Shown in pieces: positions 3,206-6,409 of a stretch of 64,000 nt of DNA. A model generated the notes under the pieces. That model was not told the origin of the DNA. It ran no database searches and saw only the letters and a list, made by a program, of their open reading frames with translations. Position 1 is the stretch's first letter, and each line of letters starts with the position of its first letter. This DNA comes from an uncultured Gammaproteobacteria bacterium. GTDB lineage: Bacteria; Patescibacteriota; Microgenomatia; Daviesbacterales; UBA10151. The stretch is from NCBI GenBank assembly GCA_964394855.1, contig CAYMZD010000001.1, positions 40,340-104,339 of the forward strand, written 5' to 3'. A program made the translations under genes and the position numbers.

Positions 3206-3277
3206 CGGGGTGTAGTTCATCGGTAGAACGCTCGCTTTGGGAGCGAGAAGTAGTGGGTTCAATTCCCTCCACCCCGA
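3206..3277 (+). tRNA. tRNA-Pro (anticodon TGG)
   Basis: Cloverleaf drawn by hand. Acceptor CGGGGTG/CACCCCG, D stem GTTC/GAAC, anticodon stem CTCGC/GCGAG with loop TTTGGGA, T loop TTCAATT. Confidence 0.75.
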
Positions 3278-3284
3278 CTTAAAA

Positions 3285-4130
3285 ATGAGGAGATTAATTT
3301 TTTTAAGTTTAATACTATCAGTGGTGTTTTTAGTTTTTATTTGGCAACTGACTGCTTCAGGCATGGTCCAAAAAGCCCCGCCTTCAACTCCCACCAATAC
3401 TATATCCACCCTGGCAGCCCAGAAAACTGCTCCGTCTCTTCCTCCTCAAACAGGCAGGCAATCAAGGGTCCCCATTTTGCTTTATCACTACATTGGTAAC
3501 AATCCTATCCCATCAGATAAAACCAGGGATGCCCTAGAGGTTACACCTCAAAAATTTGACGAGCAAATGGGCTACCTTTCCCAAAATGGTTACACCCCCA
3601 TTACATTGGACACCATGGTGGCAGGTTTAACAGGCGCTATTTCACTTCCTCCAAAACCGGTAGTTATTACCTTTGATGACGGTTATGTGGATTTATATCA
3701 TAATGCCTTCAAAATCCTGCAAAAATACCAGTTTAGAGCCGTAGCTTTTATACCGACCGGATTAATTGGCACTAGCTATTATGCCTCTTGGGATATGCTT
3801 TCGGAAATGCAATCAAGCGGACTACTTTCTTTCGAGTCACACGCTGTTTCCCACTCCAATTTAACTAGTTTGACAAATGAGCAAATTACCAGGGAGCTAT
3901 CAGAAAGCAAAAACACCTTACAGGCCAAGTTTGGTATTCCTGTTAATTTTTTAGCTTATCCTTATGGAGCTTCCAATGGAGTAGTTTGGGAAAGCTTAAA
4001 AAAAACCGGCTATGTGGGAGGATTAGGAACTTGGAGCTCTAATATTCAAAGCGAGGGCACCATGTATAATATGCCCAGAATTAAAGTTTCTGGCAGTTGG
4101 ACCCTACCTGAATTTGCCTCCAGATTATAA
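3285..4130 (+). CDS. Polysaccharide deacetylase (NodB homology domain). The start was moved downstream of the tRNA to MRRLIF.
   Basis: ITFDDGY motif and a HAVSH region. N-terminal TM or signal segment. Confidence 0.65.
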   Translation: MRRLIFLSLILSVVFLVFIWQLTASGMVQKAPPSTPTNTISTLAAQKTAPSLPPQTGRQSRVPILLYHYIGNNPIPSDKTRDALEVTPQKFDEQMGYLSQNGYTPITLDTMVAGLTGAISLPPKPVVITFDDGYVDLYHNAFKILQKYQFRAVAFIPTGLIGTSYYASWDMLSEMQSSGLLSFESHAVSHSNLTSLTNEQITRELSESKNTLQAKFGIPVNFLAYPYGASNGVVWESLKKTGYVGGLGTWSSNIQSEGTMYNMPRIKVSGSWTLPEFASRL

Positions 4131-4144
4131 GGAATTGATTTTCC

Positions 4145-4399
4145 CTAGTTTTCCCTTGGTCTGGCGATATTAACCACGATCTTTCGATCATCAACATCTA
4201 GACCATTTAAATTTTTAACAGCCGTTTCAGCTTCCTCATCTGTTGACATTTCCACAAAACCAAAGCCACGAGAACGACCTGTGTCGCGATCTTTAACCAC
4301 TTGAGCCGAAACAACAGTTCCTGCTTGGGAGAAAATCTCTGCTAGCCTGGCATCATCAACTGCCCAGGGAAGAGAACCGACGAATAATTTTTTAGCCAA
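4145..4399 (-). CDS. RRM-type RNA-binding protein (TTG start)
   Basis: RNP-1 and RNP-2 motifs (LFVGSL and RGFGFVEM). The size, 84 aa, is typical. Confidence 0.75.
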   Translation of the reverse strand: MAKKLFVGSLPWAVDDARLAEIFSQAGTVVSAQVVKDRDTGRSRGFGFVEMSTDEEAETAVKNLNGLDVDDRKIVVNIARPREN

Positions 4400-4520
4400 A
4401 AAATATCACCTCACTTTCTTTCTATGCGCGAGGTGATTTTAAGTTAAATTAAAGTTCACTCTACACACTCTAGTCTTAAGTATGACACAACTTCTTTAAA
4501 AATGCAAGCACCAAAAGTAG

Positions 4521-4545
4521 CGCAATAATCGCGCAGGAAATCACG
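4521..4545. repeat. 25-bp direct repeat copy A (CGCAATAATCGCGCAGGAAATCACG), just 3' of fic
   Basis: Identical 25-mer found again at 5654-5678. Confidence 0.9.
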
Positions 4546-4549
4546 CAAA

Positions 4550-5608
4550 TTATTTATTAAGGATATAATATGTGCTGGGGCCCTTGCCTTGAGGTTTCAA
4601 TAAACCATTATCCACCAGTCTTTTAAGCTTCAGTTGAACCGAGCGTTTGGCCAGCTTTAAAATATCCACCACATCGCCGGAGGTAATCCTGCCTGTGGTA
4701 GACAAGAAATCCATAATCTGCATCTCATCCCGATCCAGGAAAATTTGCTCCGAGCGTTTACTGACCCTGCCAAAACCAATGGATTGAACCTGTTCCAGCA
4801 CTTTTCTGGCCTCAACTAAAAATCCTGTGGTGAAGTATTCCAGCCAATTGGTGAAATCTCTGCCTTGGACATATTCTTTACCTTCCTCCAAGTGCTCGGC
4901 ATTATAATAGGCCAGTCTACCTCGATTGTAATAATCTTCCAACACTAATATTTTTCTAAAATCCCAACCCATTCTGTAAAGTAGGAGTTGAGTAAAAAGT
5001 CTGGCCAAACGTCCATTACCGTCTGTGAAAGGATGCACTGACACAAATTCCAAATGAAAAACTCCTGCAATAATAATCGGGTGAGTGCCAGAATTTCTTA
5101 CCTTTTGCATCCAATCTAACAGATCACTAATAAGCTTGGGAGCTTTCTCGGCCGCAGGTCCTTTAAAGCGCAGCATTTCTTTTCCTCCTCCCAAATCATC
5201 CAAAACATAAATATCCCCAGGCCTAAGCTTACCCACCTTATCTTTTTCCACCAGACCATCCATCACTGTTTTGTGCATGAAAAGGATCTCTTGAAGAGTA
5301 AGATCGCTCTTCCGAAGAGCCATTTCATCCAGTAACTTCAAAGCTCTAAGATAATTTTCAACTTCCAAAATATCTTTTTGAGGAGCACGAACGCTTTTTC
5401 CTTCGGAAACTTTTCCCACTTCAAACTGCGCTAATTTATTACCCTCTATGGAGGTTGAGGTATGAGCCATTCTTAAAATTGCCTGACGACGCAGCTGGGC
5501 CTCATTTAATGGTAAAACGCGGGAGCGCTCCACTGCCGCTTTAATCTCGGCGATCTCCGCTATACGGGATAAAATGGTAGAGGTAATAAGGTATTTTGGT
5601 TCAAACAA
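4550..5608 (-). CDS. fic: Fic family protein (AMPylator), class II with intramolecular inhibitory motif and C-terminal winged HTH
   Basis: Canonical HPFTDGNGRLARL active-site motif. N-terminal STSIEGN inhibitory helix motif (S/TxxxEG/N). Confidence 0.85.
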   Translation of the reverse strand: MFEPKYLITSTILSRIAEIAEIKAAVERSRVLPLNEAQLRRQAILRMAHTSTSIEGNKLAQFEVGKVSEGKSVRAPQKDILEVENYLRALKLLDEMALRKSDLTLQEILFMHKTVMDGLVEKDKVGKLRPGDIYVLDDLGGGKEMLRFKGPAAEKAPKLISDLLDWMQKVRNSGTHPIIIAGVFHLEFVSVHPFTDGNGRLARLFTQLLLYRMGWDFRKILVLEDYYNRGRLAYYNAEHLEEGKEYVQGRDFTNWLEYFTTGFLVEARKVLEQVQSIGFGRVSKRSEQIFLDRDEMQIMDFLSTTGRITSGDVVDILKLAKRSVQLKLKRLVDNGLLKPQGKGPSTYYILNK

Positions 5609-5653
5609 TCGGAGCGCGCCTCCTTTCTACAGTTATATTATACCACAATATCA

Positions 5654-5678
5654 CGCAATAATCGCGCAGGAAATCACG
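5654..5678. repeat. 25-bp direct repeat copy B, just 5' of fic. It lies immediately upstream of a TATAAT -10 element at 5683-5688.
   Basis: Identical 25-mer to 4521-4545. Confidence 0.9.
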
Positions 5679-5680
5679 TA

Positions 5681-6409
5681 GTGTATAATGATCTTGTGAA
5701 AGCTATTTTGGTCATGCCTAAATCCTTAATGGTATTGGCACTTTTACTGGCAGCTTTATCTTCTATTATCTACTTTCCATCTTCAGATAGAATTCTGGTT
5801 ATTATTTTGGCTGTTGCTACTGCTTTAATCTCTGATTTGATTTTTACTAAAGTTAGGGGAGTGCCGCCGTTTTTAATGTCGGCTGCTTTAGTTTCCGGAT
5901 TAATCATTGGTCTTTTGGTATCTCCATCTTTGCCTTGGTACATACCAGTTGTAGCTGCTACCGCTGCCATGGGAATTAAAAATTTCTTTAGGGTAGGGGA
6001 CAACCATATTTTTAATCCTGCCGCCTCTGGTCTATTGGTGGCGCATTTAATTTTTAACCAGCATGTTTCCTGGTGGGGAGTTTCCTGGCAACAGTCTATC
6101 TTACCAGTAGCTATTCTTTTAACCCCGGTTCTAGTCTCGGCTTATTACCTGAAGCGTTACTCAATAATCTTGCCATTTTTGCTGGTTTATGCCATCCTAA
6201 ACAGGGTAATTTTTGATCCCACGGTGATTTTTTTTGCCATAGTGATGTTGCCTGAACCTAAAACCTCTCCTAATGAACTTATGCCACAGATTGCTTTTGG
6301 CTCTTTAGTGGCCCTGGGTTCATCATTTATCTTATTTGCAGATCCGCTCATAACTTCGCTCCTTCTGGCAAATTTACTATTTTACTTAGTCAAAAATTTT
6401 AAATTGTAA
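5681..6409 (+). CDS. Polytopic membrane protein, possibly RnfD/NqrB-like. The true start is probably at MPKSLMV near 5720.
   Basis: Multiple TM segments. An HIFNPAASGLL segment is reminiscent of the FNPA motif of the RnfD/NqrB family. The assignment is weak. Confidence 0.3.
   Translation: MYNDLVKAILVMPKSLMVLALLLAALSSIIYFPSSDRILVIILAVATALISDLIFTKVRGVPPFLMSAALVSGLIIGLLVSPSLPWYIPVVAATAAMGIKNFFRVGDNHIFNPAASGLLVAHLIFNQHVSWWGVSWQQSILPVAILLTPVLVSAYYLKRYSIILPFLLVYAILNRVIFDPTVIFFAIVMLPEPKTSPNELMPQIAFGSLVALGSSFILFADPLITSLLLANLLFYLVKNFKL

Follow-up and report, generated by a model that had tools for sequence, protein, structure and literature searches.

A perfect direct repeat placed tightly around a single toxin-like gene may be read as the scar of an insertion or as a regulatory site, and in the second case it has to be asked which gene the site serves. 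This question is raised by a fic gene on the stretch of DNA analysed here (64 kb, hereafter called the window), which is bracketed by two copies of the 25-mer CGCAATAATCGCGCAGGAAATCACG (Table 1). The two + strand copies match with 0 mismatches and their identity ends at 25 nt; a search of the 64 kb allowing up to three mismatches found no further copy, and 100 shuffles of the window gave an expected copy number of 0. The preliminary description of a class II Fic gene enclosed by a perfect 25-bp direct repeat was thus confirmed, as was the TATAAT beside one of the copies, which lies on the + strand 5 nt past copy 2. Only the distances had to be adjusted: the copies are 4 nt (4546–4549) from the gene on the stop side and 45 nt (5609–5653) on the start side, where 5 and 46 nt had been given. 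Since both copies were also recovered in the NCBI MAG contig JACQJA010000003.1 (GCA_016198215.1) and in Logan assemblies made independently from six sequencing runs, an assembly artefact is ruled out. Comparison of 218 loci revealed that the exact 25-mer is restricted to the source population.

Fic protein, flanking arrays and promoter signals

The deduced protein scored 63 bits against the Pfam Fic domain (cut-off of 24). Its catalytic motif HPFTDGNGRLAR spans residues 192–203, with HPFTDGNGR at 192–200, and an inhibitory motif (S51-T-S-I-E55-G56-N57, residues 51–57), which was invariant in 18 homologues, sits 137 residues ahead of the catalytic His. Since HPFTDGNGR and an N-terminal inhibitory motif are thereby found on one chain, motifs and fold identify the protein as a class II Fic, for which AMPylase activity is predicted. 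Foldseek matched Fic structures with E values of 4e-16 to 1e-9, including full-length matches to the Fic-wHTH structures 8cil and 7xux, with alignments extending to residues 340–348. At the N-terminus, where Fic_N-Fic-wHTH autoregulators have the dimerisation helix Fic_N (DUF4172), the Pfam Fic_N match reached 21.4 bits, under the cut-off of 26.7, and the AlphaFold model displayed a predicted helix at residues 10–28 (pLDDT 91). At the C-terminus, weak Pfam matches to Penicillinase_R and MarR_2 covered residues 292–348, and the model showed helices at 293–305, 310–317, and 321–333, followed by a beta hairpin at 337–350 (pLDDT 78–89). According to the model, the C-terminal domain is a winged helix, a feature of Fic_N-Fic-wHTH autoregulators. 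No separate small antitoxin ORF co-oriented with fic was found at the locus. A type II toxin-antitoxin system of the class I kind (FicT/FicA) was therefore rejected, the inhibitory motif residing inside the Fic chain itself.

Read on the fic strand, the 25-mer makes up most of one array of three units, and in the window this motif cluster was found only at the two flanks of fic. The upstream array includes copy 2, and the downstream array, which begins 2 nt past the fic stop codon, includes copy 1. The fic promoter was missed by a simple consensus scan because it has no -35 hexamer. For the divergent RnfD-like gene, a transcription start about 7 nt past its TATAAT would leave the GTG at 5696 leaderless. 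The promoter-like site of the RRM (RNA-recognition-motif) gene was likewise absent from the consensus scan output; it starts 9 nt past the downstream array, and in relatives TTGC-type -35 and GGGACAAT-type -10 boxes come after the array in the same way. A search for known RNA families between 4100 and 5800 found none. An antisense promoter at the 3' end of fic was also considered and rejected: the TATAAT at 4564–4569 represents Tyr-Tyr-Ile codons, an antisense TATAAT was present in 9 of 78 loci, and there was no Tyr codon bias.

Table 1. Positions of the fic gene, its flanking arrays, and neighbouring features in the window
Feature	Position	Strand	Details
25-mer, copy 1	4521–4545	+	CGCAATAATCGCGCAGGAAATCACG
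25-mer, copy 2	5654–5678	+	CGCAATAATCGCGCAGGAAATCACG
fic ORF	4550–5608	minus	352 aa, TTG start; Pfam Fic 4e-17
Upstream (promoter) array	5650–5680	minus	TACGTGAT-ttcc-TGCGCGAT-tat-TGCGTGAT on fic strand
Upstream array units	5673–5680, 5661–5668, 5650–5657	minus	start-to-start 12 then 11 nt
Downstream (3'-end) array	4517–4547	minus	TGCGTGAT-ttcc-TGCGCGAT-tat-TGCGCTAC on fic strand
Downstream array units	4540–4547, 4528–4535, 4517–4524	minus	three direct-repeat units
fic -10 box, TG-extended	5637–5645	minus	TGgTATAAT; 7 nt from upstream array edge
fic Shine-Dalgarno	5620–5625	minus	AGGAGG; follows -10 box
-10-like box, divergent RnfD-like gene	5684–5689	+	TATAAT; 3 nt from opposite edge of upstream array
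RnfD-like membrane gene	5681/5696–6409	+	Pfam NQR2_RnfD_RnfE 3e-16
RRM promoter-like site	4479–4507	minus	TTGCAT (4502–4507), 17-nt spacer, CATACT (4479–4484)
RRM gene	4145–4399	minus	Pfam RRM_1 3e-22

Conservation of the arrays and the insertion reading

For comparison we used a set of 80 loci, namely 79 species-level genomes and the window, the relatives being Daviesbacteria, Amesbacteria, and Gottesmanbacteria with Fic identities of 41–79%. In this set, the array consists of three direct repeats with a unit consensus of about TTGCGYGAT and unit starts 12 and then 11 bp apart; a strict spacing of 11 and 11 bp matched almost nothing and was discarded in favour of 12 and 11 as the true spacing. 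Calling an array at a core score of at least 13 of 15, we detected the upstream three-unit array within 140 nt before fic at 79/80 loci, with the same score reached in 4 of 409 background windows. A 3' array, located between -10 and +60 nt of the fic stop, was found at 65/80 loci, and the 15 loci that lack a clear one indicate that it is dispensable. The bracket marks this gene family throughout a bacterial superphylum. In the relatives, a TGnTATAAT comes after the array, a few nt ahead of the ATG. One clade displayed the whole array flipped relative to the promoter; an invertible segment was rejected as the explanation, with the -10 box still located between array and fic and no conserved recombinase present.

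The exact array sequences differ from genome to genome and are lineage-specific. Upstream and downstream arrays nevertheless resemble each other more within genomes (identity of 25.2/31) than between them (22.7; 0 of 10,000 permutations reached the observed value), and exact shared runs of 20–31 nt were seen at 8 of 64 loci. The 25-nt identity in the window belongs to the high end of this within-genome similarity. Related genomes that carry fic without the repeat, a case raised in the preliminary description, were thus found in one sense only: long exact identity is confined to the 8 of 64 loci mentioned, but both arrays are nearly always kept.

Starting from the DNA instead of the protein, a scan of metagenome contigs with a two-unit 20-mer resulted in 141 matches. 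Of these, 48 had flanks of 1.3 kb or more on either side; 39 of the 48 were located directly at fic, 34 of them at its start and 5 at its stop, and the remaining 9 had no recognisable fic adjoining. A few extra arrays were also identified ahead of other genes (loci L073, L083, L019, and L074), so that the site is not strictly private to fic. A link to phages was considered, as two viral contigs carry the two-unit 20-mer, and was dropped since neither contains fic.

These comparisons bear on the proposal that site-specific recombination brought in fic as a single-gene cassette and that the 25-mers are a duplicated att core (attL/attR). A perfect 25-bp direct repeat tightly around one toxin-like gene is what such an event might leave, a tRNA-Pro gene lies 1.2 kb away, and the neighbour next to the fic promoter varies between relatives. 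However, nearly all of the 79 species-level relatives have fic flanked by two arrays, whose sequences are lineage-specific, and the repeat is internally triple, built from 11–12-bp units, and is not a junction sequence. The pair of fic and RRM is conserved (33/80 loci), the nearest relatives (82% identity) share either the RnfD-fic or the fic-RRM-deacetylase context, and Fic identity declines with taxonomic distance, as vertical descent predicts. The GC content of fic (0.41–0.43, against about 0.40 in the flanks) revealed no compositional anomaly. No recombinase or integrase was found near fic, whose neighbours encode RRM, polysaccharide deacetylase, PHP, sortase, RnfD-like, and deoxyribosyltransferase-like proteins. 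An empty site with one copy of the 25-mer between the RRM gene and the membrane-protein gene had also been envisaged; contigs of the source population, collected via exact Fic, RnfD-like, and RRM proteins, all carry fic, the short ones simply terminating within it, and the nearest relatives keep the gene in the same context. Altogether, we abandoned the cassette proposal and regard an insertion scar as extremely improbable.

Assignment of the arrays to fic, its neighbours, or another factor

If the arrays are operators, they could serve the neighbouring genes as much as fic. In the window, each array adjoins a promoter-like site of a neighbour (Table 1), and RRM, the commonest downstream neighbour in the clade, directly follows fic at the 33 loci mentioned above; at two further loci (L019 and L074), RRM is separated from fic and has its own array. 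These observations would fit an operator that mainly co-regulates fic with the downstream RRM and the upstream RnfD-like gene. Against this, the 3' array is kept at the fic stop where the next gene is unrelated or convergent and just 10–60 nt off, which assigns it to fic and not to an RRM operator, and 16 of the 18 RRM genes separated from fic by another gene carry no array, so that RRM was rejected as its owner. On the promoter side, the neighbouring gene comes from at least 30 different families among the relatives, the RnfD-like gene not being conserved, and its co-regulation is therefore proposed for the window genome only. By these findings, control of a neighbour is at most a local side effect, and a mainly shared operator is improbable. 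Of the shared operator offered in the preliminary description as the alternative to insertion, the operator part stands, but its owner seems to be fic itself, probably by way of Fic's own winged helix, and the 3' copy does not belong to the neighbour.

The 3' copy might also act at the RNA level as a terminator hairpin, formed by pairing of the GCGC cores of adjacent units, or as a protein roadblock, in place of a looping operator. The array is always located exactly at the gene end, and the downstream array of the window contains, on the fic strand, two weak sites of a hairpin with a T-tract (GCGCGATTATTGCGC then TACTTTTGGT, and GCGCTACTTTTGGTGC then TTGCATTTTT). Two such sites do not exceed chance expectation (1.6), however, their stems measure 4–6 bp, and T-tracts past the array are, by eye, not conserved in relatives. 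Moreover, transcription from the fic promoter does not include the same sequence upstream, which lies ahead of the -10 box, and the units covary with protein residues (see below). We therefore consider this explanation very unlikely. A roadblock formed by bound Fic is compatible with the operator model and no true rival to it.

A more general objection is that a different transcription factor, encoded elsewhere, owns the arrays and that Fic is a mere member of its regulon, its winged helix doing something else. The 9 of 48 well-flanked matches away from a recognisable fic and the arrays upstream of other genes can be cited in its favour, as can the fact that binding by Fic is deduced from sequence. 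We compared operator variants with the protein, scanning all 352 alignment columns. The top predictors of the two operator variants were residue 320 at the recognition-helix N-cap (MI/H 0.87), and residues 339, 343, and 344 of the wing (0.83–0.89), which map to the helix 321–333 and the hairpin 337–350 of the AlphaFold model. Residue 320 tracks base 2 of the unit, and the wing residues track its GAT half. With Ala at position 320, base 2 was G in 276/291 units, and with Thr it was T in 39/48; units ended in GAT in 280 of 366 cases with GP at positions 343–344 and were of the non-GAT kind in 52 of 54 with TT, these counts spanning few independent lineages, with perhaps three origins of T320 and a TT-wing group that may be one old lineage. 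Out of sample, the two closest relatives combined T320 with TTCG units (P0004) and S320 with TGCG/TACG units (P0002).

Comparison of the two parts of the protein pointed in the same direction. When proteins were compared by operator type, identity of the N-domain was nearly the same for B-B (0.737) and B-A (0.731) pairs, whereas identity of the C-domain was 0.753 versus 0.651. The operator type thus follows the C-terminal and not the catalytic domain. Together with a motif that is overwhelmingly fic-linked in the DNA-first scan and with homologous Fic-wHTH proteins that bind their own promoters, these results make a separate owner unlikely, and the arrays are most likely read by the C-terminal DNA-binding tail of Fic itself.

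Proposed operator model and comparison with known systems

Based on these data, we propose that the two 25-mers are matching parts of two conserved operator arrays bracketing fic, that Fic represses its own promoter, and that the 3' array is an auxiliary operator, a reading to which we assign a probability of roughly 0.75. That Fic binds the arrays and represses fic, and what the 3' array does, we infer from the sequence patterns described above. With unit starts 12 and 11 bp apart, consecutive units come to lie on roughly the same side of the double helix. In each unit, the TKCGY half would be contacted by the recognition helix and the GAT half by the wing. The upstream array, ending just before the extended -10 box, covers the -35 region of fic, and its occupation would repress fic transcription and keep a potentially toxic AMPylase low, i.e., by negative autoregulation as demonstrated in experiments on the homologous Fic-HTH protein CccR. 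In the window genome, the occupied upstream array probably represses the divergent RnfD-like gene as well. As an auxiliary operator, its most likely role, the 3' array could raise the local repressor concentration or loop over 1.1 kb to the promoter array; it could also stop transcripts from running on into the next gene. Occasional homogenisation or co-evolution of both arrays, and not an insertion, would then account for the perfect 25-nt identity. Known relatives act as dimers on inverted repeats, so that three direct-repeat units would need a different stoichiometry.

A further-reaching possibility, which we put forward tentatively, is that the bracket, besides repressing transcription, provides a scaffold on the DNA. 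Bridging of the two arrays by three Fic dimers or by a higher oligomer might loop out the 1.1-kb gene and keep the few Fic molecules produced bound to DNA and dimerised, in a deAMPylating or inactive state, the bracket thus serving as a cis-encoded 'antitoxin' to a single-gene toxin. This idea is extrapolated from CbFic2, in which DNA induces a dimerisation switch, and from the occurrence of the bracket throughout the family. If it is true, release from DNA, whether by a signal or by auto-AMPylation, would turn on the AMPylase as well as derepress fic.

The proposed model represents a rare case of a cis-regulatory code inferred for bacteria of the Candidate Phyla Radiation, in which, to our knowledge, almost no transcription-factor sites are known. 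For this large uncultivated branch, the fic locus gives an operator grammar of three direct repeats spaced 12/11 bp, arranged as one array each at promoter and stop codon, and the natural specificity variants point to candidate DNA-contacting residues. The view of Fic proteins with a DNA-binding tail as dual enzymes and regulators is recent (CccR in 2022, CbFic2 in 2023, and SoFic in 2026, with one operator mapped), and DNA recognition by wHTH-Fic proteins, the stoichiometry of binding, and gating of AMPylation by DNA are now testable in vitro. The locus also shows that, when a toxin gene is enclosed by a perfect repeat, the repeat can have a regulatory role and need not indicate mobility.

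The locus resembles attL/attR pairs in that a discrete gene is enclosed by perfect direct copies of about 25 bp; it differs in that it offers no recombinase, empty site, or compositional signal, and in that an internal triple repeat is conserved around members of the family. Another analogy is provided by two-operator looping, known from the tripartite operators OL/OR of phage lambda, which flank the repressor gene region cI-rexAB, and from lac O1/O2. As there, a regulator gene would lie between two multi-site operators about 1–2 kb apart, one over the promoter and the other auxiliary, although the proteins are unrelated, the units in the window are direct repeats and not palindromes, and looping in the window is a proposal.

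Among Fic proteins, CccR of Yersinia pseudotuberculosis, a Fic with a C-terminal HTH, represses its own promoter via repeats near -35/-10, its operator consisting of two inverted 10-bp repeats, 26 bp apart, bound by a back-to-back dimer (PMC9755527). Residues 31–340 of the window protein align to 7xux (Foldseek E of 1e-10, about 20% identity), and repression of its own promoter is the mechanism proposed here for the window Fic by analogy. In contrast to the inverted repeats of CccR, the window displays three direct repeats spaced 12/11 bp and an additional 3' array, and while CccR is a T6SS-secreted effector, the window Fic revealed no sign of secretion. SoFic of Shewanella oneidensis binds its own promoter DNA, namely the 100 bp preceding its start codon (bioRxiv 10.64898/2026.07.09.737422). 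It shares its domain organisation with the window Fic, as does CbFic2 of Coxiella burnetii (identities of 16–21%); the descriptions of the two proteins (bioRxiv 10.64898/2026.07.09.737422; PMC10628234) give no defined operator, repeat array, or 3' site. In CbFic2, for which generic dsDNA was used, binding of DNA by the wHTH causes the protein to dimerise and turns its AMPylation into deAMPylation (PMC10628234), and this DNA-triggered switch makes a DNA-bound control of the enzyme state plausible for the window Fic as well.

The fic gene and its flanking repeats

Scanning of the window revealed two exact copies of the 25-mer CGCAATAATCGCGCAGGAAATCACG, whose identity ends at 25 nt, and no third copy in the window with up to three mismatches (chance expectation zero). 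They are separated by a single ORF encoding a Fic protein (Pfam Fic, 4e-17) with the catalytic motif HPFTDGNGR (residues 192–200) and the inhibitory motif S51-T-S-I-E55-G-N, whose position N-terminal of the catalytic motif places it in class II. Thus, the bracketing of a class II fic gene with an intramolecular inhibitory motif (51–57) by identical 25-mers was confirmed as proposed in the preliminary description, and the TATAAT noted beside one copy is assigned to the divergent RnfD-like gene as its -10 box and directly adjoins the upstream array. The close spacing stood as well, but stop and start codon lie 4 nt and 45 nt from the repeats, each one below the value given previously. Both copies were recovered in independent assemblies of six sequencing runs, so that the repeat did not arise during assembly. 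The window belongs to the Candidatus Daviesbacteria MAG GCA_016198215.1 (contig JACQJA010000003.1).

Features of the fic region (window positions)
Feature	Position	Strand	Remarks
tRNA-Pro(TGG)	3206-3278		overlaps longest-ORF start of deacetylase gene
Polysaccharide deacetylase gene	3237-4130		
RRM gene	4145-4399	-	TTG start
RRM leader	4400-4470	-	conserved 5' leader
RRM leader SD	4405-4412	-	GAGGTGAT (reverse complement), 5 nt ahead of TTG
RRM leader anti-SD	4430-4437	-	ATCACCTC (reverse complement)
Downstream (3') array	4547 to 4517	- (fic strand)	TGCGTGATTTCCTGCGCGATTATTGCGCTAC, begins 2 nt past TAA
25-mer, first copy	4521-4545	+	
fic	4550-5608	-	352 aa, TTG start
fic leader region	5606-5645		leader of c. 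25 nt with AGGAGG
25-mer, second copy	5654-5678	+	
Upstream array	5680 to 5650	- (fic strand)	TACGTGATTTCCTGCGCGATTATTGCGTGAT, then ATTGTGG and TATAAT
-10 box of RnfD-like gene	5684-5689		TATAAT; GTG start at 5696

A cassette inserted by site-specific recombination, with the 25-mer as att core, had been favored for this single gene flanked by identical repeats. This is very unlikely, since the GC content of the fic region equals that of its flanks, no recombinase was found among the fic neighbors (RRM protein, polysaccharide deacetylase, PHP, sortase, RnfD-like membrane protein, and deoxyribosyltransferase-like protein), and the repeat is a three-unit array kept around fic across relatives. 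The search for an empty site yielded no fic-less contig in the source population; every contig has fic. The Fic family is also very large and tightly conserved, with more than 4600 proteins at E below 1e-20, the best 119 non-identical matches of these showing 72–82% identity and nearly all having 352 aa. The two closest relatives (82% identity) revealed the RnfD-like-fic and fic-RRM-deacetylase orders of the window, and relatives at 77–80% identity again carried the RRM gene on the same strand after fic, the gene on the other side varying. Overall, fic was not inserted recently.

With ten tRNA genes in its 64 kb, the window is rich in them. One, tRNA-Pro, overlaps the deacetylase gene, so that the true start of the latter must lie farther downstream (281 aa at NCBI vs 297 aa here).

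Three-unit arrays at fic across Microgenomates

The 25-mer is the stretch common to the two arrays of the window, each consisting of three direct-repeat units (c. TTGCGYGAT). In the first relatives, tandem units such as TTCGCGATAAT, TGCGCGATTAT, and TGCGTGATAAT were found both upstream of fic and between fic and the RRM gene. For comparison, we used 79 loci with Fic alignment from species-representative genomes spanning Daviesbacteria, Amesbacteria, Gottesmanbacteria, and other Microgenomates (Fic identity 41–79%). In almost all of them, three units with start-to-start spacings of 12 nt and then 11 nt directly precede an extended -10 box TGnTATAAT a few nt ahead of the ATG. A simple three-unit pattern resulted in 195 raw matches in 1.32 Mb vs 7–14 in shuffled sequence, with clusters upstream of fic (63), at its stop codon (52), within fic (1), and elsewhere (13). 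At a core score of at least 13/15, the upstream array was present in 79 and the stop-codon array in 65 of 80 loci (79 relatives plus the window), and 4/409 background windows reached this score. Both arrays follow the consensus TGCGYGAT-nnnT-TGCGCGAT-TAT-TGCGYGAT. In one clade, the upstream array is flipped while the -10 box still adjoins fic, an arrangement in keeping with a site bound by a protein and not with an element of the core promoter.

The 3' array tracks fic, not the neighboring gene: the RRM gene directly follows fic in 33/80 loci, but many of the remaining loci have an unrelated gene there, or a convergent one at a distance of 10–60 nt, and still carry the array at the fic stop. 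In addition, 16 of 18 RRM genes parted from fic by another gene have no array. Two short hairpins weakly suggest a terminator at this position, but their number does not exceed that expected by chance, and relatives do not conserve them. A promoter running antisense to the end of fic was likewise rejected for lack of conservation.

Scanning of metagenome contigs with the two-unit 20-mer TTGCGCGATTATTGCGYGAT gave at least 120 stretches. Among those listed and two viral contigs, at least 141 matches were counted, 92 of them just before a fic start, nine at a fic stop, and one farther away; 39 of the listed matches had no fic in the stretch, in many cases since the contig stops at that point. With at least 1.3 kb on either side, 39 of 48 listed matches were located at fic start or stop, and well-flanked matches off fic lay near assorted genes and were often just two units long. 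The viral (IMG/VR) contigs L217 (12926-12956) and L218 (2175-2194) carried the 20-mer and no fic in the examined stretches, L217 with two overlapping matches forming three TTGCGCGAT units 11 nt apart. Metagenome contig L105 (Ga0209515_10009829, 1977-2060) revealed an intact three-unit array and promoter followed by MFKPEYKLT, the first nine Fic codons fused in frame to an ORF resembling type I restriction HsdS by eye, apparently a replaced or truncated fic remnant that retained its operator.

Further variants were observed among the relatives. Several relatives (L027, L055, L077, L079, L080, and L081) harbored two arrays upstream of fic, tandem or back to back, in L027 (5085-5166) a distal TGCG-type and a proximal TTCG-type; such pairs suggest separate control of the divergent neighbor or a higher-order complex. 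Two genomes carried two fic paralogues, CAZFZP01 (L018 and L071, 79% and 60% identity to the query) and CAVTQH01 (L093 and L094, the latter truncated). In L091 and L094, the fic ORF is interrupted and the upstream array perfect. Extra good arrays off the fic ends precede a 1015-aa ORF in L073 (11721-11747), as also in metagenome locus L154, an 83-aa ORF in L083 (13337-13363), and RRM genes separated from fic in L019 (12307-12337) and L074 (11731-11761); these four loci possibly hold additional regulon members. A pseudo-array TGCGCGCGCGATTTTTGCGCACAATAGTGCGC within a conserved ORF of c. 550–600 aa in L033 (12315-12341), L047 (12957-12983), and L058 (13930-13956) is probably a coding-sequence coincidence, though spaced like the operator.

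In most relatives, TATAAT ends 6–8 nt before the fic ATG, implying leaderless mRNAs; in L018–L096, the region of these boxes lies 10–15 nt before the ATG. The window and L026 instead carry AGGAGG in a leader of c. 25 nt, together with a TTG start, and the RnfD-like gene of the window appears leaderless. In the RRM leader, the anti-SD can pair with the SD in a hairpin kept in about 40 relatives with compensatory changes (TTCACCTCC ... GGAGGTGAA), preceded by a conserved GAGTGTATTTAGTG...ACAGTAA block. No Rfam family matched this leader; it resembles a regulatory leader by which CPR RRM genes would have their SD sequestered.

Covariation and likeness of the arrays

The C-terminal region of Fic was modeled as a winged helix-turn-helix (helices 293–305, 310–317, and 321–333, hairpin 337–350). 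Residue 320 lies where the third helix begins. Loci with Ala here have G as unit base 2 in 276/291 units, and those with Thr have T in 39/48. With wing residues G343-P344, 280/366 units end in GAT. Nine loci carry T343-T344 together with R339; in these, GAT is missing from 52 of 54 units, which read TTGCGCAAG, TTGCGCTTA, and similar in both arrays. Among 352 alignment columns, residue 320 ranked first for the base-2 variant (normalized MI 0.87), and residues 339, 343, and 344 led for the GAT variant (0.83–0.89). The operator type goes with the C-terminal, not the catalytic domain. At the sequence level, the residue-320 rule also held outside the derivation set, on the two closest Fic relatives P0004 (T320, TTCG units) and P0002 (S320, TGCG/TACG units). 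Conceivably, another regulator reads the arrays, but this would leave the covariation with Fic residues unexplained.

The two arrays are more alike within genomes (25.2/31) than between genomes (22.7/31; 0/10000 permutations reached the observed value). Their longest common exact run is typically 9–12 nt, with 20–31 nt in 8/64 loci, including L030 (31), L020 (29), L076 (27), and the window (25). The two arrays of a genome have odd spacer letters in common, e.g., TTCC in the window, and in L076 the odd unit TGCACGAT; in the closest relatives, the spacers differ between the two arrays. For some lineages, this points to occasional homogenization of the two arrays or to selection that keeps the sites matched; the perfect 25-mer is no duplication made by insertion.

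Proposed autoregulation and known Fic systems

Fic aligned over nearly its full length with the Fic-wHTH structures 8cil (CbFic2), 7xux (a FIC-domain protein, presumably CccR), and SoFic. The C-terminal HTH of CccR binds two inverted 10-bp repeats near -35/-10 and represses its own promoter (PMC9755527), SoFic binds the 100-bp region that precedes its own gene (bioRxiv 10.64898/2026.07.09.737422), and DNA binding of CbFic2 leads to dimerization and switches AMPylation to deAMPylation (PMC10628234). Based on this likeness and these results, we propose autorepression via the upstream array. By analogy, the window Fic would bind the three units upstream of its own -10 box, and the bound array would repress fic transcription, while the 3' array would be an auxiliary operator that raises local concentration, forms a loop, or acts as a roadblock; we infer binding, repression, and the role of the 3' array from sequence. 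On the side of the RRM gene, a -35-like TTGCAT follows the 3' array at a distance of 9 nt. Both the RRM gene and the RnfD-like gene may be affected in the window genome, which is not a conserved feature.

In the literature searched, we found no description of a triple direct-repeat operator, its duplication at a gene's 3' end, its conservation across Microgenomates, or residue-base covariation of Fic and operator. The arrays provide a clean operator code that can be tested, for a poorly understood class of enzymes/regulators in uncultivated bacteria. Autoregulation by Fic-HTH proteins is already known, and the finding would amount to a new principle only if the DNA-scaffold model were correct.
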